64,000 nucleotides of DNA from a virus (lineage: Duplodnaviria > Caudoviricetes). The stretch is from positions 1-64,000 of the IMG/VR virus record IMGVR_UViG_3300033121_001553. One strand, 5' to 3'. Positions 16,228 to 60,532 of this stretch are shown here, in pieces. The first letter of the stretch is position 1. Each line of letters starts with the position of its first letter. A program made the position numbers and the translations under genes. The notes beneath the pieces were generated by a model. That model searched no databases, was not told where the DNA came from, and saw nothing but the letters and a program-made list of their open reading frames with translations.

Positions 16228-17859
16228 TTAATAACCAAAAATCTCAACTGTTATAATCGAACCGCTACGTAGACGCATAGGAAATTTCAAGTCACCAGTC
16301 GCTGCAGCTGTGCCTGGATAAACGTCATTTGGATTCGTTATGCTTGTACCTGGTACAAGCAGTATACCGTTAAGATAAATGTTCAAATCATTGGAAAATG
16401 CGCGGCCAGTGTAGTTAAGCAGCGGCGCATCAAGATTCGTTGGGTAGGTAACGTTAACGTCTGCATTTACAGTCGTGTTAATACCAGCTTGCGCTCTATA
16501 ACGCTTAAGCGAACTTGACAATGAAGATGAAATAAAATTAAATGCTCCGAGTACGGAGTAGTTTGGATAACCTGACTGAAATGAGTTCCACTCAGCAGTT
16601 GACGTTGCGAATGGAATCAAACCACCCGTGTACGTTGATGCGCCACCGTATCCATCACCGAACTGTATGTACGTTCCACCTGACAGTACAAGATTGCTAC
16701 CGCTTGCAGCACGCAGTGTTAGTCCAGCAGCAGAGTCGATCTGACCAGCTGTTGTCCCAATATTAATCTGAGTAGAACCTGTCGCTGCTTGAATACCCAG
16801 CTGAAATGCAGATGGTAGCGAACTAGAAATTCTAAACTGGTTCAGGTTATACGTCAGTGTATTTGCGCCACCAGCATCTGATACAAGCTTCCACAGCTCT
16901 GTAGTACCACTCAAAAATGTCCACGAAACGCCTGCAGCAAGTCTAATGCTAGTATTATCGCTATCAAGCGCAACTGTAGTCGACTGATTATCCAATGCAC
17001 GCTGTAGCGTAATATCTGTCAATGTTGCAAATGCGCTTGAAACAGGATTTGGATAGTCGACAAAAATTGTATTGCTTAGATAAGCATCTTCTGGTAGAGA
17101 GTCAAAGTTAATTCTCTTAACATATGAATACTGGATCACACGTCCGCCAATGTCAGCAGCAGATGCTGACGTAAACGATGATGTACCATTCGTGTTAAGC
17201 TCACGTACGAAAGAAATTTGCGAACGTCTTGTTGTATCATTGAATGCATCGCCAGTCGAAGCGCTTGATTCGACCTGCAGCAAACCGTAGATCTGCTGTC
17301 CACCGTTCGCGTAGCTTGATGTTACAGGATCAAACGTATACGCATCACGCACAATAACAAGATTTTTTGGTGCATTTACAAAAGAACCAGAAATTTGTGC
17401 TACAGACCAACTACCGTAGCTACCCTCGCTACCGCTCAACAACGCAACAAGCGTGCCAGTTGCGTAAGAATCAGTACCAAGCACTATGTAGTCGTTCGGT
17501 GCAGTTCCGATAGAAGAACTCAACAACGCAAAATTTGATCCCGTAGCAACAAATACAAGATTCAGATTTTGCGTTCTAAACAAAAATCTATGCTGCTCTA
17601 CATCTACAAGATCGCTGCCAATTGTATTCAATCCGCGTGCGGGATAGATGCCGTAAACACCAGATACTTGCTGCAACGCATCGTACCAGCTACCCGTAAC
17701 GCTTGCATGTATCATTTGACGCAGCTGTGTTCTTATTGCGTTTAGATCTTCCTGTAGATTTGTAGAACCTGTTTGAAGTCCAACGCCTGTTGTCAGAGCA
17801 TCGTTGAAGCCTTCTGATGAAAATATTTGAGTTGGCTGCGATACGAACGTGCGTGCCAT
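16228..17859 (-). CDS. Putative virion structural / tail-associated protein
   Basis: 543 aa, S/T/G-rich; C-terminal IYLNGILL..G....NDVY..GDLKF motif. Confidence 0.7.
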   Translation of the reverse strand: MARTFVSQPTQIFSSEGFNDALTTGVGLQTGSTNLQEDLNAIRTQLRQMIHASVTGSWYDALQQVSGVYGIYPARGLNTIGSDLVDVEQHRFLFRTQNLNLVFVATGSNFALLSSSIGTAPNDYIVLGTDSYATGTLVALLSGSEGSYGSWSVAQISGSFVNAPKNLVIVRDAYTFDPVTSSYANGGQQIYGLLQVESSASTGDAFNDTTRRSQISFVRELNTNGTSSFTSASAADIGGRVIQYSYVKRINFDSLPEDAYLSNTIFVDYPNPVSSAFATLTDITLQRALDNQSTTVALDSDNTSIRLAAGVSWTFLSGTTELWKLVSDAGGANTLTYNLNQFRISSSLPSAFQLGIQAATGSTQINIGTTAGQIDSAAGLTLRAASGSNLVLSGGTYIQFGDGYGGASTYTGGLIPFATSTAEWNSFQSGYPNYSVLGAFNFISSSLSSSLKRYRAQAGINTTVNADVNVTYPTNLDAPLLNYTGRAFSNDLNIYLNGILLVPGTSITNPNDVYPGTAAATGDLKFPMRLRSGSIITVEIFGY

Positions 17860-17866
17860 ATAAAAT

Positions 17867-18316
17867 TAAATATGGATACGTTGCGAGTATGTTGCTCCCA
17901 CTACGCGGTGCGTAGTTCAAATTTATATTGCTACCAGTAAGAGTGTAGTCATTGCTTGCTCCCTGCTGTTGTAGTATACCATTTACATAAAACATAAGAG
18001 CTGTAGCTGGGTACGGTGTATGTTGAAGTCCGTAATAAATATTTGTACCATCTGCGCTTCCAGAAGGAGTTTCCATCCACGCTATGGTGCTGCCAAGAGA
18101 CGAGCTGACTGAAATTATCAATTCGCCTTGCGCACCAGTATCTGTGATCAGTATACCAGTGCCAGCTTTGATGACACGAGCGTTCGGCGGAATCGTATAA
18201 GAACCACTAACAACAGCGAATTGCGTGTTTTGTATATGAGAATCAATTTGAGGATGAGTATTACTACCAATCCCTTCTAGCTCATCATGATTCTCGATTA
18301 CTCTTACAGCTGTCAT
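17867..18316 (-). CDS. Putative structural protein (beta-sandwich tail module); ends at TTA
   Basis: ETPSGSADGTN..F.VNGILQ..G.SNDYTLTG..I....AP..GS.ILATYPY then TTA; removes a 170-nt overlap. Confidence 0.7.
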
Positions 18317-18379
18317 GCGTGTCAGAAATTATAGTTCGTCAAAAAGCAAAAGTACGTAAAACGTATATAGTAAAGTAGT

Positions 18380-23700: not shown

Positions 23701-24570
23701 ATGAAAGCGTTGGTGCTATCGGGTGGTGGTGTTAAGGGCGCGTATCAAGTAGGCGTTCTGAAATATTTGCTAGGCGAAAGAAATACAAATTATGATATCA
23801 TCTGCGGCGTATCAGTTGGTGCGCTTAACGCTGCTGGACTTTGCAACGGCAAAAAAACGCCAGCAGAATCAGTCGAATGGCTTGAAAATTTCTGGCTTAC
23901 ACAAATTTGCGGTAATAACTCAATTTACAAACGATGGTTTCCATTTGGCAAACTGCATTCATTGTGGAAACAGTCGATATATAATTCATCGCCGCTGTCG
24001 TGTCTAATAGAACAAAATCTAAGTATTGATGCGATAAGAGCAAGCGGTAAACAAATTGCTGTTGGCGCTGTCTGCATTGATAACGCTAAGCATTATTTTG
24101 CGACGCAAGATAACGATGATTTTCATAAGTGGGTTCTTGCATCATCAAGTTTTCCATGCTTTTTTCTTCCAATCGAGATAGATGGAAAATTGTGGAGCGA
24201 TGGCGGAATCATAAATGTAACTCCACTTGGGCAAGCCATTCGTATGGGTGCAACTGAGATAGACATTATAATGTGCAGCAACCCGTGGAATCCGTCATCT
24301 TGGACATCAAAACGTAAAACTGCAATTCCAGATCAACTAATCCGCACGCTAACATTGATGAGTGAACAAATTATGCGTGTTGACATTAATGTTGTTGGAC
24401 TCAAAAATGATCTTGCAACGATAAATCAGAAATATAAAATAATATCTGTGAATTTGATCATGCCAGAAAGCGAACTCACGAATGATTCGCTTGAGTTTGA
24501 TCCAGCAAGTATACGCGAAATGATCGATATAGGTTACAAAGACGCGTTTAAGATTAAAAAAATAGTTTAA
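23701..24570 (+). CDS. Patatin-like phospholipase 1
   Basis: LVLSGGGVKGAY, GVSVG nucleophile, DGG; 289 aa, TAA stop. Confidence 0.92.
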   Translation: MKALVLSGGGVKGAYQVGVLKYLLGERNTNYDIICGVSVGALNAAGLCNGKKTPAESVEWLENFWLTQICGNNSIYKRWFPFGKLHSLWKQSIYNSSPLSCLIEQNLSIDAIRASGKQIAVGAVCIDNAKHYFATQDNDDFHKWVLASSSFPCFFLPIEIDGKLWSDGGIINVTPLGQAIRMGATEIDIIMCSNPWNPSSWTSKRKTAIPDQLIRTLTLMSEQIMRVDINVVGLKNDLATINQKYKIISVNLIMPESELTNDSLEFDPASIREMIDIGYKDAFKIKKIV

Positions 24571-25055
24571 TGTCGCTATTCCAGCTAAGAAATGTAAATT
24601 TTGGTAAGTCGAAAGCAAACGCAACAGGTACGCTTGGTGTTGGATACACTGTTTATGATGCAACAGGCACGATCGTAACATCTCGTACTACAAGTGGTGT
24701 ATACCAAATTCTAACTGGCAGCGGACTGTATGCAGCATACGTCGAATTTCCAGATAACTTTCGAGGTCAGATCGTCTGGGATACGGGAACAATTTTTGCT
24801 ACAGCATCTTTTGCTACTGAGCAATACAATTACGAAGAAAATAACCCAAAGGTTGATAGCATCGATACACGTACAATGCAGATGTCGGGAACAATCGCCC
24901 AGTTGTACGATGTGCAATATGGAAGATGGAAAATTGTTAGCAATCAAATGATTTTCTATAAAGAAGACAATTCAACAGTTGTTGCAACGTATAACTTGTA
25001 CGATCAAGGTGGCGTACCAACGATGGACGCTGTGTTTGAAAGAACAAAAGTGTGA
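24570..25055 (+). CDS. Hypothetical (likely structural) protein
   Basis: 161 aa, beta-rich; TAATG coupling. Confidence 0.7.
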   Translation: MSLFQLRNVNFGKSKANATGTLGVGYTVYDATGTIVTSRTTSGVYQILTGSGLYAAYVEFPDNFRGQIVWDTGTIFATASFATEQYNYEENNPKVDSIDTRTMQMSGTIAQLYDVQYGRWKIVSNQMIFYKEDNSTVVATYNLYDQGGVPTMDAVFERTKV

Positions 25056-25396
25056 ATCGAATAATCACTCGTGGGCTTGGTACGACACGCGGTGCAGCAG
25101 GACGCGCTGGTCTTGTAACATCTGGGTACGGTGGTATTTTTACGTCTATTGCTGAATTTGCAAGAAGAATTAGATACGGTAAATCTGGCGACAGACGTGA
25201 CTACTACGATAAGATTGTGGTATGGGCCGGTCTAAAAACAGTAAATGATGAAAAACCAAATGAAAAGATAAATGGTACTGACTCAGCTACGATACCTGGT
25301 CCAGAAATCAAAGTTAAGTCATCGCTTGTTCATGCTGGCGCAGCTTATGCATTCGAAAAAATAAAAATCATCGTTCGACGATTGAAAGATAATTTA
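25052..25396 (+). CDS. Hypothetical protein; ends at TTA
   Basis: IITRGLG..LVTSGYG start; TTA at 25394-25396, 5 nt before the next ATG. Confidence 0.65.
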
Positions 25397-25401
25397 AAAA
25401 C

Positions 25402-25839
25402 ATGAACGAAGCTGTTGAACTAAACGTTGACGAATCAAACGAACTGTCATTCATGATCAAGATAGAGGGCGCGCAGTCTAACGAAGCGCGTGTTCGTCTC
25501 GTTCTCGAGGGCGACGGCGGTATATCGTACATGTTCGCTGGTCGTGGTACGAACGAAGATGGTGTCGTAACGTTCAAGATTCCATCGATGGAGCAGAAGC
25601 TCGCAGAGGGAACGTACAACGCGCGTGTTGAAGTGCTCGTAGAGAGCAGGTACTTCGAACCAACAACATTCAAACTAAAATTCAATAAACCTGTGAAAGT
25701 TGTATCAGAAGGTATCGTATCAAAGCACGTTGAAAAGCAAAAAGCCGTAACTGTAACAGCTCAGCCGATACACGTTGTTCAACGTCAAACAAGTGCTGAT
25801 GACACCACAAAACGTAAAAAGATTATAAGATTCTCATTA
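25402..25839 (+). CDS. Hypothetical Ig-like / structural protein; ends at TTA
   Basis: LSF.IKIEG..RLV..G.V...IP....EG.Y...VEV.V...YF.P; TTA at 25837-25839. Confidence 0.65.
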
Positions 25840-25850
25840 GATTATCTTAT

Positions 25851-26708
25851 ATGACAAGAGCGTTGGTGCTATCGGGCGGTGGAGTAAAAGGAGCATTTCA
25901 AGTTGGAGCGCTCATGCACAGCATGGGCGATCTTGGACGTGACTACGACATCATCTGTGGTGTGTCTGTTGGAGCGCTTAACGCAGCTGGACTTTGCAAC
26001 GTCAAACGTGGCATGCCGTCGTACGCATCGTCAAATCTCAGGCAGTTCTGGGAGCATGAAGTTTCTAGCAAGACCATCTACAAACGATGGTTTCCGTTTG
26101 GTCGACTTCATTCGCTTTGGAAGAAGTCTGTATACGACTCTTCTCCGCTTCGCAAGCTTGTCCAGTCAAACATCGATTACGAAAAAATACAACGTTGCGG
26201 AAGAGACGTTGCTGTTGGCGCTGTCTGTCTGAATACTGGTGAGATGCGCTACGTAACACAAAAAAATGAAAATTTTATCGACTGGACAATAGCCTCTGCG
26301 AGCTTTCCGATTTTTTTTGAACCAGTAGAGATAGAAGGACAGCTATGGAGCGATGGCGGCATCAACAACATAACTCCGCTTGGGCAAGCCATTCGTATGG
26401 GTGCAACTGAGATAGATGTGATCGTATGCTCACCGCGTGGCAGACAAGGATGGCGTTCGATGACGAAGCGAGCTGTCCCAGATCAGATCATGCGTACGTT
26501 TGATCTTATGTCTGGATGCATCGCCGATAATGACTTGCATTTCTGTGAGCTAAAGAACGATCAGCCGACATTCAAGCATATCGCTGTCAACGTTATCGCG
26601 CCAGAAGCAGAGCTAACAGACAACTCGCTTGACTTCTCACGTTACACGATCGCTCGTTGCATCAATGCTGGGTACGAGTCAGCGCTGAAGACCTTCAGCG
26701 CTTCTTTA
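25851..26708 (+). CDS. Patatin-like phospholipase 2; ends at TTA
   Basis: GGGVKG, GVSVG, DGG; with the TTA stop it is 285 aa and co-terminal with its 289-aa paralog. Confidence 0.9.
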
Positions 26709-27003
26709 GCTCACACTGCTCAATTTCAGCGCATGACTTTACCTGCATCACGCAAGCTGGCTGCAGCCATACGCCGTTGTCTTGAAGATGCGTGCACAGC
26801 TGCTCGCAAGTTGTTCCGTCTGGAAGCGGTTTTCCCTCATCGCAGTCCTTGATGTGCTCGCATGCAGCTGCGCATAGATGAGTATCGGTTAGAACCGGTG
26901 GGCGTGGCTCTGGCAGCTTCCTGGATGGTTCGCAGGAACACCCACCAGCCATAGCCAGTGACACCATAAAAAATCCTATTACCCTGGTTACGGTTTTCAT
27001 CAT
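26695..27003 (-). CDS. Cys-rich putative lipoprotein
   Basis: Hydrophobic N-terminus ending LAMAGGC; CxxxCxxxxxC..CxxxC..C..C..C pattern. Confidence 0.6.
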   Translation of the reverse strand: MMKTVTRVIGFFMVSLAMAGGCSCEPSRKLPEPRPPVLTDTHLCAAACEHIKDCDEGKPLPDGTTCEQLCTHLQDNGVWLQPACVMQVKSCAEIEQCELKKR

Positions 27004-27755
27004 ACAGTTAGAACCCAAAAATCCTTAGCTTCACCAACTCGCAAATACTCATACGGCATACGACAGTGTCCAGAGTCGCCCCACGACTCGCCCCATGAAT
27101 TTCTAACAAGGAATTGCTTCGATGAACGATCGTACCCAACGATGCACATAGCATGAGAACCGATAGAGCTCTTCGACACGTCTGGTAGACGTACATCACC
27201 GCTGCACTGCTGGAACTCGCTCCAGATTTTCACGCCAAATACGACTGGATGCTTCGCTGCGAGCGCTATCTCGATCTCTGAGCAGAGCTGATCGAAGTTC
27301 TCGTGATCGATCCTGTAGTATGCACCGATCCTGTGCATGTACGCTTCTCTATACGCACGCCACGGTGGTCTTATGTAAACGTTTGAAACATCGTACTGCC
27401 ATGCGCTTTCGCTGCATGTACCAAAAGTTGCAAGCGACTTCATCGCGTCTCTGATGTAGCAGCCCTGATCGGCATGCGTTTCATTCATCGCAACTCTCGC
27501 GTTGTAGTAAACGAACAGACGAGAAAGATCAACATGCTGTTTGCCTGAGATCAAGTTGCGTATCTCAAGCGCTGAAACGACTGAGTTGCCAACACAAGAG
27601 CTCAGCTCGGCTTGCTGTTCAACAGGTGGACTCCACGGCAGCAAGTCGTATTTGTTTGGTGTCGTTCCTTCGACGATCAGTCCAGCCGAACAAAACTTGT
27701 AGTCTTCGTTGCAGCTTGGATCTTCTCGCCATCCGTTAAGTTTAATCGTTGCCAT
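27000..27755 (-). CDS. Papain-family (C1A) cysteine peptidase
   Basis: QQAELSSCVG, LSRLFVYYNAR, GSHAMCIVGYD, FLVRNSWGESWGD.G. Confidence 0.93.
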   Translation of the reverse strand: MATIKLNGWREDPSCNEDYKFCSAGLIVEGTTPNKYDLLPWSPPVEQQAELSSCVGNSVVSALEIRNLISGKQHVDLSRLFVYYNARVAMNETHADQGCYIRDAMKSLATFGTCSESAWQYDVSNVYIRPPWRAYREAYMHRIGAYYRIDHENFDQLCSEIEIALAAKHPVVFGVKIWSEFQQCSGDVRLPDVSKSSIGSHAMCIVGYDRSSKQFLVRNSWGESWGDSGHCRMPYEYLRVGEAKDFWVLTV

Positions 27756-43242: not shown

Positions 43243-43893
43243 TTATTTTTTCTTTGTGCCCATTGTCAGGTCACCAGGGCCAGTGCCCCAAGCACGTTTT
43301 CCACCAATCGCACCAGATCCGCCACCAAGCTTTAGATCACCAGAAGAAAAACCAGATCCGCCGCCGCCAGTTCCTGCGAATGGACTGCTACCGTGCGCTG
43401 ATGACATCGAACCTCTGAAGCCTTTCACATTTTCGCGTGCAACGAACTTGAATCCTATCTTAAGCAGTTCTGCTTTGATGTCTTTCGTCAATGTTGTTGA
43501 CGCTTTTTCGACATTACGTCCTGCTATAGCTGACTGGTAATTCCTTGCCAACGCTTGGAGCTCAGCAGCGCTGAACTCTTCTTCATCGTTATCAAGCTTG
43601 TAGTTGACAAAATTTTCGAAACTCTCAAATTCAGGCATCGCACGAAGTTCTTCGATCTCTTCATCGAATGCGTTGTCTTCAACTTTGCTGTAGTGCCCGT
43701 GGCTAGCACCGCGTTTGATGCTATGCTTACGCTCAAGCTTATCTTCATCATCTTCAAGGTACTTTAGATCTGTCGGTGTAAGATCTGTAAAACCAGGCGG
43801 TAGATCAAAAAATCCTTTTGGCTTTGGCGTTGCTTCTAGCACAAGAAGATGTTTTACATAGCTTTCGATAAGAAACTTGAAATTTGAATTCAT
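43243..43893 (-). CDS. Hypothetical (putative internal head) protein; a separate gene, not a nitrilase fusion
   Basis: ATG at 43893 (MNSNFKFLIESYVKHLLVLEA); TATTTA at 43904-43909; Gly-rich C-terminus. Confidence 0.75.
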   Translation of the reverse strand: MNSNFKFLIESYVKHLLVLEATPKPKGFFDLPPGFTDLTPTDLKYLEDDEDKLERKHSIKRGASHGHYSKVEDNAFDEEIEELRAMPEFESFENFVNYKLDNDEEEFSAAELQALARNYQSAIAGRNVEKASTTLTKDIKAELLKIGFKFVARENVKGFRGSMSSAHGSSPFAGTGGGGSGFSSGDLKLGGGSGAIGGKRAWGTGPGDLTMGTKKK

Positions 43894-43977
43894 AGCGCAT
43901 GCATAAATACACATCGCTAAGCAAGTTAATACTACGAATATCTCTAATCTAACTCCCCGTCTCAGATGAGGATTTAG

Positions 43978-44724
43978 TAAAACTTTAACAAGAAGTATCG
44001 ACTGTGATGAGTCTGACGTTGACTGAACATTTAGTCTTCTGTCAATAATCGTGCTGCTTCCAAAACAGTCTTCTCCTTCGTTAACGTTTCCTATTCTATT
44101 TGCAACGATAACAGCAGCGTCGAGTTCTTCTGCGAGTTGTATCCACTCATCTAGCGGACCAGCTGTTTTACCAGTTGCAGAACATGGTACGGCAACGATA
44201 TCAACAGAACCCTTCTTATAGAATTGAACATTTCGTTTGCCGTAGAACGGATGCGATTCACGGTAAAGATTTCTGCTATCACCAGAGATAAGCAAACCAA
44301 CTCGACCAAACGGCGTCATCGCAACTGGTGAAGGATCATCGCCAGGCATCGCCCAAACATGCTCATTACGATGAAGATTGTGTTTACGTGTTTTTGCTAC
44401 AATACTTCCCGCTGGATCAACGAGAGCTGCTGAGTCGTATATACCTCCCTCATTCAGCTCTACGTATCCAAACGCGATATAGCACGCGTTGTCTAGCGCA
44501 AGCTCAGATATGAACTGCAGCTCGCTGCTATCGCTCGTTTGCGCGTGTTCTATCGCTTCGTCTATGGTTGAGATCTTGCTACCGTTGAACGAACGTTCTG
44601 GCAAAACGATGAGCTTTGCGCCGCCAAGCGCAGCAGCACGAACCATCGCTGCGATCTTTTTCTTCATTTGATCTTGCGACTTCTCATCCCTATACTGCAG
44701 CGCAGCTACTTTCACAGAGCTCAT
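43978..44724 (-). CDS. Carbon-nitrogen hydrolase (nitrilase) family; ends at TTA
   Basis: VAALQ, LIVLPE, YDSA, RKHNL, GLLISGD, VANR.G; 248 aa when stopped at TTA 43978-43980. Confidence 0.85.
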
Positions 44725-44728
44725 CGTT

Positions 44729-45394
44729 TTATACTCCTATTTGTAATACAGCACCACGTGCAATGTCGCTCTTAAGTCTTGACATATCGCGTGGAGAAGC
44801 TGTGTATCCAAGCATATCAGCCTTCTTACGACCAATAGACTTTGCATCTTTTACTACCTGATCAGCAAGCTCTTCCCACGTTTCATCTTCGCTTGGGCCT
44901 TGGCGCATGTAGAAATCATTGAAGGCAGCTGATGTTGCCATAACTTCAGACTGATTTTCGATAAGAAAATTTATTTCATCGTCAGTTGGCGGATCTTCGC
45001 TTGACTTAAGCATCGACAGATAGTCAAAAAATGCTTCATCAAGTATGTCTTTGATCTTCTCGATATGCTCTTCTGTGATTCCAAGAAATACATACGGATT
45101 GTTAAGCTTCTCAAGCGTTACGAATTCGATCCTCTTAACGCCGCTAACTGTTAGGCCAAGCGCATCAGCAACGTCTTCAAGCTTTTTGCCGCCTTCAAGC
45201 GATCTGTAACGACGTCTCTCAGCGTCTTCCTGATCATCTTCAAGCTCATCTTCACGTGTCCAACGACCGCCTGGCGCGTATGTATCGTCGATCTCGTTTA
45301 GTCTCTGTGACTTTTTGTTTGCAGCTTCAGCAAGCTTTCTGCTGATTATCTTGCGTACTTGTGAACGAATGACTTTTTCTAGTTGCTTATCCAT
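44729..45394 (-). CDS. Leader-bearing protein with a sigma70 region-4-like HTH
   Basis: KLEDVADALGLTVSGVKRIE...LEKL; TATTTA upstream. Confidence 0.6.
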   Translation of the reverse strand: MDKQLEKVIRSQVRKIISRKLAEAANKKSQRLNEIDDTYAPGGRWTREDELEDDQEDAERRRYRSLEGGKKLEDVADALGLTVSGVKRIEFVTLEKLNNPYVFLGITEEHIEKIKDILDEAFFDYLSMLKSSEDPPTDDEINFLIENQSEVMATSAAFNDFYMRQGPSEDETWEELADQVVKDAKSIGRKKADMLGYTASPRDMSRLKSDIARGAVLQIGV

Positions 45395-58963: not shown

Positions 58964-59283
58964 GTTTTTCTCAGACGGTTAAAAAATCTCTCAGCAGAAC
59001 GCATCGCGTGTTTGATGTACGCAGATCCAGTTGGATTCGAAGAGTGAACATCCCACTCTGGAAATCCATTTAGCTTTCCAAGAGCAGCGAGCTTTTCTAT
59101 GTAACACGCGACAACATAACCGCTTGCTGACTTTTCACCGAGATCGTGATCGAAAGAGATGTGTGTTACATCACCGCGTTTGATCAGTCTACAAGCTTGC
59201 AGCGCAGTTTCGCAGCCGATCCATCCAGCCGGTGTTCTACGATCGCAGTCTTCGTTGCACTTATCATCAAGCCAGACTTTCAT
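58960..59283 (-). CDS. Cyclic-phosphate-processing receiver-domain-like protein
   Basis: KVWLDD..R..P.GW, ISFDHDLG..GY, HSSNP.G; ATG follows an in-frame TTA. Confidence 0.78.
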   Translation of the reverse strand: MKVWLDDKCNEDCDRRTPAGWIGCETALQACRLIKRGDVTHISFDHDLGEKSASGYVVACYIEKLAALGKLNGFPEWDVHSSNPTGSAYIKHAMRSAERFFNRLRKT

Positions 59284-59683
59284 TTTTAACCTCGGCGGGA
59301 GCAAAGCAGAATTGCTTTCCGCAGCTGAAGCATGAAATCGTGAAGTGTTCGAACGGGTGCAGTTCGCATTTCTTTACGATCATGTTTTTCTTTATGACGA
59401 AAATCGTTTCAAGACCGCAAAACTTGCATGTGAATTTGTGCGTATATCCGTCTTCCGTGCATCGCATTCGGTATTTGTTGATCGGCAACAAATTGTTGCG
59501 CTGCGCTTCGAGGTCACGTTTTTCAGATGTTCTGTACGTTTCTCTGCACGTTTCCGGAAACCCCTTTGCATCATCGTCTTTACTTTTGAACTTCGATTGT
59601 ACGCACGTAGTCAAAAGTACAACCACAGTCATCGCCCAAGGAAGAAACAACAAAACGATGAAGGTCATTTTATCGATCGACAT
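59267..59683 (-). CDS. Membrane-anchored Zn-ribbon protein; a separate gene
   Basis: ATG at 59683 (MSIDKMTF), TM segment, CKFCG and CFSCG. Confidence 0.6.
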   Translation of the reverse strand: MSIDKMTFIVLLFLPWAMTVVVLLTTCVQSKFKSKDDDAKGFPETCRETYRTSEKRDLEAQRNNLLPINKYRMRCTEDGYTHKFTCKFCGLETIFVIKKNMIVKKCELHPFEHFTISCFSCGKQFCFAPAEVKNESLA

Positions 59684-59698
59684 GATCAAATTTGCGCG

Positions 59699-60526
59699 TA
59701 ATATCTCAAACACAAACTGCACTTTTGGATCACCGTAGTCAGCGTCACCAACGTTCACAAGTACATTCTTCATTTCAAGATGCCTGCATCGACCATGCGT
59801 ATGACCGCTGTATATCTCGAACAGAACATTTTCGTGTTCTTCGGCACGTTCGGATATGAGAGCGCCAAGCGAAGCATTACAGTACCATGGAAGAAATCCA
59901 GTACCTGACTTCGTTCCTCTGTACATACAAGCATCAACGTAAGGCGGCACATGCGTAGCGATGATGATTTTTTTCGCACCATCAGCAAGCGCTGTATCAA
60001 TTTTATTGATAAGCGCATTGTTATCATCACGCGCTATTTGCTTCGCGCATCGAGCGACAACATCTTTCATTGTGTTAAGAATCTGCGGCGACAGCACACC
60101 GCCTGTCGTCATCATGAATTCTTCTATTGAACGCCAGTCGTTCATGACAAAGTTAGCTGCGTTGTAGTTACCAGCCAACGTATCGTACCAGCCGTCGCAT
60201 CCAACAAGCGCAACATCACCAAAACGTATTGGCGTAGACTGCGTTAGATAAACAAGATCTTCCAGCTTCGACAACGCAGGAAAAACTTTTTTACGCATCT
60301 GTTTGATGCTGCCACCGTAGTAGTCGTGGTTGCCAGCAACGTAATAAATCGGCAGCAATGTCAGCTGCTGTAGTTGCGTTAGATGACTAGCGAAGTCTAT
60401 CGAGTTTGAGATATCGCCCGTGAGCAACACAGCATCAGCGTCTTCACACGATATGCGAGACGCCAGCTTAAGTGCGCAGTCACGGGCACTATCGAGGTGA
60501 ACATCGGTGCACCATGCTATCTTCAT
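59699..60526 (-). CDS. Calcineurin-like metallophosphoesterase; ends at TTA
   Basis: TDVH, TGD, AGNHD, THVPP, SGHTH; 275 aa when stopped at TTA 59699-59701. Confidence 0.9.
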
Positions 60527-60532
60527 GTATTA

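Follow-up and report, generated by a model that had tools for sequence, protein, structure and literature searches.

TTA at the end of a second patatin gene in a large wastewater phage: a probable fourth stop codon

The locus described here raises the question of where a protein ends. In a stretch of DNA from an uncultured phage there are two genes for patatin-like phospholipases, of which the first (patatin 1) ends with an ordinary TAA and the second (patatin 2) arrives at an in-frame TTA at the same distance past a conserved Gly-Tyr pair (GY). Either the TTA is read as leucine and the second protein continues to 333 amino acids, or it closes the gene after 285. The window, meaning the whole stretch analysed, is the first 64 kb of the 186,819-bp IMG/VR virus record G000, which is linear and has a G+C content (GC) of 43%. 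Its source is a large uncultured wastewater phage, T4-like and of at least 187 kb. CheckV gave a completeness of 52% for G000 and of 68% for a second phage record used below, G001, both records being partial. Sister-strain contigs (L003 and L051-L056, from JGI, ENA and Logan assemblies) cover window positions 15603-36910 at 89-97% identity. A blastn search of the region against 50,697 GenBank phages gave zero matches, and a metagenome scan with patatin 2 returned distant relatives only (at most 34% identity); the close relatives of patatin 2 were obtained by cluster look-up.

23701..24570, + strand: patatin 1, patatin-like phospholipase of 289 amino acids, ending with an ordinary TAA 10 residues past the conserved GY
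25851..26708, + strand: patatin 2, patatin-like phospholipase of 285 amino acids plus the putative terminating TTA, catalytic motifs intact
26706..26708, + strand: the TTA ending patatin 2, at GY+10 (10 residues past GY), kept in 7 of 7 related contigs from independent assemblies

These coordinates confirm those of a first-pass annotation, which had given patatin 1 as 289 residues with TAA and patatin 2 as 285 residues with TTA, equally far past GY.

The patatin pair and the common end of its family

Patatin 1 ends in ...GYKDAFKIKKIV followed by TAA, and patatin 2 in ...GYESALKTFSAS, after which codon 286 is the TTA. There is no in-frame TTA inside the body of either gene. Under translation table 11 the frame of patatin 2 runs on to a TGA at 26850-26852, which gives 333 amino acids with a 48-residue extension, and the public gene calls for patatin 2 are all of 333 or 328 amino acids.

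Both proteins matched the Pfam Patatin profile (PF01734, curated cut-off 27.7 bits) over its positions 1-191 of 191, patatin 1 with E 4e-36 (125.5 bits) and patatin 2 with E 1e-31 (110.7 bits), and they were 54% identical to each other across 284 residues. In an alignment of 29 sequences that included both copies, G37-V38-S39-x-G41 and D168-G169 were invariant, and G9, G10, K13 and G14 of the Gly-rich oxyanion loop were invariant or nearly so. Judged by these motifs, both patatins are full-length members of the family with an intact GxSxG serine (S39), DGG aspartate (D168) and Gly-rich loop, and they are predicted to be lipid acyl-hydrolases.

When 5.8 billion proteins were searched, 1297 relatives emerged; those listed were almost all 286-292 amino acids long, with 83% coverage of the 333-residue query. 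Among the listed homologs with a recognisable GY (n = 113), 90 end exactly at GY+10 and 107 between GY+6 and GY+13; the TTA of patatin 2 stands at GY+10, the same position as the TAA of patatin 1. The 48-residue tail was found among the 120 listed homologs only in patatin 2's own cluster (at least 93% identity; eight members in two haplotype groups), and no diverged homolog among those 120 carried the LAHTAQFQ tail. The first-pass proposal that TTA acts as a stop here is thus supported by both the pairwise and the homolog alignment, the tail not being conserved beyond that cluster.

Sequence beyond the TTA, and TTA across genomes

26709..26852, + strand: apparent tail of 47 codons, apparently non-coding in the frame of patatin 2, with all of its 8 substitutions at codon position 2
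26695..27003, - strand: Cys-rich small gene of 102 amino acids, ATG at 27003 and TGA at 26695-26697

The 48-residue extension had been described as antisense to a convergent Cys-rich gene, and this proved correct: the 333-residue frame overlaps the convergent open reading frame (ORF; 26695-27018, - strand) by 158 nucleotides, and with the TTA as the end the overlap is 14 nucleotides. Compared to L051/L003, substitutions in the body of patatin 2 are distributed 7/6/67 over the three codon positions, and those in the 47 codons after the TTA 0/8/0 (Fisher p = 3e-6 versus the body). In the patatin frame this amounts to residue changes at 8 of 47 positions in the tail and 14 of 285 in the body. The same 8 tail changes fall at third positions of the Cys-rich gene and are silent there (0 of 51 residues altered). 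Because all 8 changes alter a tail residue and none alters the Cys-rich gene, the tail, on this substitution pattern, is not coding. Silent changes in the Cys-rich gene are equally frequent within the overlap (8 in 48) and in the rest of the gene (8 in 50), and therefore the patatin frame adds no constraint there. A second gene of the window (17690-18328, - strand) has substitutions of 1/3/15 in its body and of 7/0/0 after its TTA, a distribution in phase with the gene that follows.

The Cys-rich gene is real, with 17 substitutions and a single residue change versus the sister strain, a sign of strong purifying selection. Its product appears to have a signal-peptide-like N-terminus and a lipobox-like AGGC. 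Public standard-code calls omit this gene (L051:10845-11153, and the same place in L052-L056) because the false extension of patatin 2 covers it.

Under the standard code, patatin 2 would be a 333-residue protein that arose by stop-loss from TAA to TTA and carries a tolerated, unselected extension antisense to the Cys-rich gene. Such a change takes one base, the frame does stay open for 47 more codons, the public gene callers all agree on 333 or 328 amino acids, and an unselected tail would yield the same substitution pattern as the one seen. This explanation must be set against the stability of the TTA, which is unchanged across strains differing at 9% of patatin 2 sites, and against the behaviour of TTA in the rest of the genome.

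Codon counts were made from greedy non-overlapping ORFs, the last 50 codons of each being taken as tail and the rest as core. TTA made up 15 of 3376 leucine codons in cores (0.4%) and 50 of 525 in tails (9.5%); its tail/core ratio was 19.7, that of the next highest codon 2.9, and it was near-absent from about 44,000 core codons. Of the 15 core TTAs, 14 are found at two-gene junctions or upstream of a real start, and the remaining one in a small unexplained ORF. The latter is codon 89 of 162 in G000:C1:102957-103445 (+ strand), outside the window, and the ORF is perhaps spurious. In the long ORFs of the window, in-frame TTAs are confined, with few exceptions, to the final few codons, to the stretch ahead of the first ATG and to ORF overlaps, and the remainder of G000 outside the window has the same distribution. 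Base composition does not explain the depletion, because relatives of equal GC use the codon freely: at GC 0.41-0.43, TTA is 20-32% of their leucine codons, equally in cores and in tails. In AT-rich relatives with the standard code, TTA occurs within the patatin body.

When TTA was counted as a fourth stop, the 178 ORFs of at least 100 codons ended in TGA (87), TTA (57), TAA (30) and TAG (4). The median distance to the next in-frame standard stop was 6 codons after TTA, 8 after TGA and 4 after TAA, and this similar spacing means that the sequence following TTA looks like that following any stop. Selected back-up stops behind TTA were rejected, since TTA does not differ from TGA and TAA in this spacing. 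Two standard ORFs of the window, each holding two genes, have TTA between the genes:

43243-44736, - strand: CN_hydrolase gene (about 248 amino acids) and an unrelated gene in one standard ORF, with four TTAs within 21 codons between them
59267-60529, - strand: metallophosphoesterase gene (275 amino acids) and a small membrane-protein gene in one standard ORF, with a TTA between them

The TTA comes at residue 248 in the first, whose CN_hydrolase domain reaches residue 245, and at 275 in the second, whose Metallophos domain reaches residue 244.

The TTA end was also found in other phages. L057 is a Logan contig (GC 0.58) with a T4 gp13-like gene in the vicinity. Its public 441-residue patatin (P0078) consists of a patatin and a homolog of the window's 161-residue protein, joined in frame through a single TTA. 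This TTA stands at the equivalent of GY+10 (the motif there is GR) and is followed by ACG ATG; P0078 is a false fusion of two genes. The patatin of L027 (GC 0.59), of which G001 is the whole record (322,633 bp, GC 0.586), has a TTA at GY+9. TTA in G001 accounts for 35 of 7226 leucine codons in cores and 94 of 1361 in tails, with a 15-fold tail enrichment (1.6-fold for the next codon). In a quick tree with support from the Shimodaira-Hasegawa-like approximate likelihood ratio test (SH-aLRT) only, the three TTA-ended patatins fall in three separate clades. The TTA of patatin 2 is identical in JGI, ENA and Logan contigs and in contigs of four wastewater libraries labelled RNA, which are 20-59 kb long, identical to the window and may derive from DNA. 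The RNA-labelled contigs exclude assembly error and are silent on transcription, transcript ends and editing.

The stop-loss explanation is scarcely credible in the light of these results. It fails on the absence of TTA from about 44,000 core codons together with its position at the end of about a third of ORFs, and on the occurrence of TTA at the patatin end in two diverged phages, in one of which standard-code reading then fuses two genes. As a codon pattern, the distribution of TTA excludes a one-off stop-loss mutation. These patterns show that translation into functional protein goes no further than the TTA, stopping there or directly ahead of it, and that TTA does not serve as a sense codon.

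G000 encodes, outside the window at G000:C1:154237-154308, an amber-suppressor-type tRNA (anticodon CUA, 72 nucleotides, without a long variable arm), and G001 has such a tRNA too. In most of the standard ORFs of G000 that end with TAG, a TTA precedes the TAG by a few codons. It may be that TAG does not function as a normal stop in the G000 phage.

The suppressor-type tRNAs of G000 and G001 would suit an explanation in which TTA is a leaky or regulated stop and a fraction of ribosomes makes functional extended isoforms; recoding devices occur in this phage group, and the tail of patatin 2 is an open frame. That open frame is explained, however, by its being antisense to a real gene, the tail is without coding selection (8 of 8 changes non-synonymous), and neither G000 nor G001 yielded a tRNA with the anticodon UAA. 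Functional read-through at TTA is accordingly very improbable.

What might read UUA

Patatin 2 is very probably an ordinary 285-residue phospholipase closed by TTA, a codon that would serve as a stop beside TGA, TAA and, rarely, TAG. It is also likely, with somewhat less confidence, that the T4-like giant phage clade, and most likely the translation apparatus of its hosts too, uses a four-stop code with UUA. If so, it would be the first case outside organelles of a sense codon turned into a stop, and at least three diverged lineages of GC 43-59% would share it. Some points weigh against this interpretation. The evidence for the TTA end is all at the sequence level. L003 and L051-L056 form one haplotype group, and the 8 tail substitutions count as one comparison, not seven. 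A tail that is translated and unselected is compatible with patatin 2 taken alone, and only the genome-wide pattern excludes such a tail. In the partial G000 and G001 records, neither a release factor nor a rescue factor came to light, and the search for the RF-1 domain was negative.

In the mechanism that we propose, TTA would close about a third of the genes, and the 47 codons past the TTA of patatin 2 would simply be the antisense strand of the convergent Cys-rich, lipoprotein-like gene. UUA would be read by a class I release factor with widened specificity, probably that of the host, by analogy with the RF2 or RF1 mutations of organelles in which UUA is a stop (PMC12574857). A host factor is the most likely reader, the two partial phage records being negative for the RF-1 domain. 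Competition from a tRNA-Leu(UAA) would be absent. No such tRNA is among the 12 tRNAs of G000, which include none for leucine at all, or among the 39 of G001, whose leucine tRNAs have the anticodons GAG, TAG, CAG and CAA; this count covers the phage records.

The same search results would also fit TTA as an unassigned ('hungry') codon, at which the ribosome stalls and the peptide is freed by rescue (an ArfA/ArfB-like or phage factor). Neither record yielded a release factor gene, the large tRNA set of G001 is without Leu(UAA), and stalling and termination cannot be separated by sequence data alone. About a third of the genes would then rely on slow rescue, however, and the sequence downstream of TTA is like that of ordinary stops, with no extra back-up stops. 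Rescue by transfer-messenger RNA (tmRNA) tags products for degradation, and the products of these genes would be so marked. In organelles, moreover, the counterpart change accompanies release-factor mutations (PMC12574857). On balance we regard stalling and rescue as unlikely, and termination at UUA by a release factor as the better account.

The closest cellular patatins were from Myxococcales metagenome-assembled genomes (70-73% GC, about 40% identity), and their contigs are without any TTA. Canonical motifs of RF1 (PAT) and RF2 (SPF) were seen in five Myxococcales/Deltaproteobacteria metagenome-assembled genomes that hold these closest patatins, and these findings give the Myxococcales genomes no support as hosts.

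A related phage, G002 (the record of L005, 309,433 bp), encodes a short RF1-type release factor (L059:1453-2398, - strand) that has a PPT motif and GGQ, lacks domain 1 and is split over two frames. A tmRNA is encoded in G002 as well, along with tRNAs whose anticodons are CUA (two genes) and UUA (one gene, ochre-suppressor type). TGA ends 226 of its 317 ORFs, and the tail enrichment of TTA is weak (2.7-fold). No link was drawn between this RF1-type gene and the TTA stop, the enrichment being too weak.

History of the pair, its neighbours and known systems

24226..24263: exact block of 38 nucleotides, copy 1, encoding PLGQAIRMGATEID
26379..26416: exact block of 38 nucleotides, copy 2, identical to copy 1

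The first-pass annotation had treated the two patatins as paralogs that provide an internal control for TTA as a stop, and had pointed to exact DNA shared near 24226 and 26379. The shared block was recovered at 38 nucleotides, a length beyond chance: 0 of 5000 codon-shuffles within identical residues reached it (mean 14, maximum 34). In the sister strain, the longest run common to the two patatin copies is 21 nucleotides. At one synonymous site both copies have GCA in G000 and both have GCT in L051, and because the copies agree within a strain and differ between strains there, short-tract gene conversion between them is suggested. De Bruijn contigs of public short-read runs break exactly at the 38-nucleotide repeat.

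In the quick tree, patatin 1 grouped with P0045 (SH-aLRT 98) and patatin 2 formed a long branch off an unresolved backbone; the two are not sisters. Patatin 1 is the syntenic ortholog of the family, in a conserved order of patatin followed by genes for 161, 117 and 150 amino acids. A recent duplication was ruled out, as the copies are not sisters in the tree and only patatin 1 stands in the conserved gene order; patatin 2 is accordingly a second copy that is either old or acquired. This does not weaken the internal-control argument: every member of the family has the same C-terminus, and the TTA stands at that shared end position.

24570..25055, + strand: gene for 161 amino acids, conserved, downstream of patatin in relatives too
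25052..25396, + strand: gene for 114 amino acids, first stop TTA at 25394-25396, TGA three codons on
25402..25839, + strand: gene for 145 amino acids, first stop TTA at 25837-25839, TGA five codons on
27000..27755, - strand: papain-family (C1) cysteine peptidase of 251 amino acids, upstream of and coupled to the Cys-rich gene

Homologs of the 114-residue protein end in ...RLK, two residues short of the TTA position. The gene at 25402-25839 was dropped as a stop test, the C-termini of its homologs being too variable. The ATG of the Cys-rich gene overlaps the TGA of the upstream peptidase gene (ATGA). PHROGs gave no match to patatin 2, to the Cys-rich protein or to any of the three small genes (161, 114 and 145 amino acids). 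In a relative of 64% GC (L029:8859-10870), genes for a C1 peptidase, a Cys-rich protein and a patatin are co-directional. Patatin 2, together with the two genes that converge on it, may represent a rearranged form of this three-gene module.

Published cases of a sense codon turned into a stop are limited to mitochondria and, since 2025, plastids (PMC12574857). For a phage, such a reassignment would imply either a free-living bacterial host with UUA-reading release factors or a phage-borne termination device, and either would be new for bacterial translation. If the four-stop code is true, it lies hidden in public databases as over-long or fused calls. Public calls for patatin 2 would be wrong at 333 or 328 amino acids instead of 285, as would the 441-residue fusion in L057, and a conserved lipoprotein-like gene would be hidden beneath the false extension. 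As a test case the patatin pair is compact, with one family, one genome, one ordinary stop and one TTA, and it could be used directly as a reporter pair.

Patatins with the PF01734 domain are known from large phages, and both genes here resemble them, with hundreds of homologs of 286-292 amino acids, whose contigs reach 357 kb in the protein search and 529 kb in IMG/VR. Unlike the other large phages, this genome has two diverged copies, the second beside a peptidase and Cys-rich pair.

Stop-recoded phages (Lak and crAss-like, in which TAG or TGA is read as an amino acid; PMC8346664, PMC7886860) are similar in their mis-calls under table 11, their suppressor-type tRNAs and their wrong public annotation. 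There a stop has become sense and genes appear broken, whereas here sense would have become a stop and genes appear over-long or fused. The rare UUA of Streptomyces (bldA-dependent; PMC10732093) shares the near-absence of TTA from genes. In Streptomyces, however, TTA is scarce owing to a GC of about 70% and is still leucine inside genes, while the phage has a GC of 43% and TTA at gene ends.

A full-text literature search found UUA as a stop in organelles only, and none for phages or bacteria. The mitochondrial code of labyrinthuleans (Thraustochytrium) is NCBI table 23. In labyrinthulean mitochondria and peDinoflagellate plastids UUA is a stop with the same RF2 Ser204 substitution, and in the mitochondria of two green-algal lineages (Marsupiomonadales and Pseudoscourfieldia) UUA and UUG are stops with changes in mtRF1a (PMC12574857). 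The phage resembles these organelles in the codon, in the direction of the change from leucine to stop and in the retention of the standard stops, and also in that the codon is missing from gene bodies and placed where homologs stop. The organelles have the RF2 Ser204 or mtRF1a changes, whereas no altered release factor has been found for the phage. The phage differs further in being a T4-like bacterial phage of at least 187 kb in which UUG remains leucine, and in that the trait, as read from the genes, occurs in at least three diverged phage lineages with GC from 43 to 59% (G000, L057 and G001).

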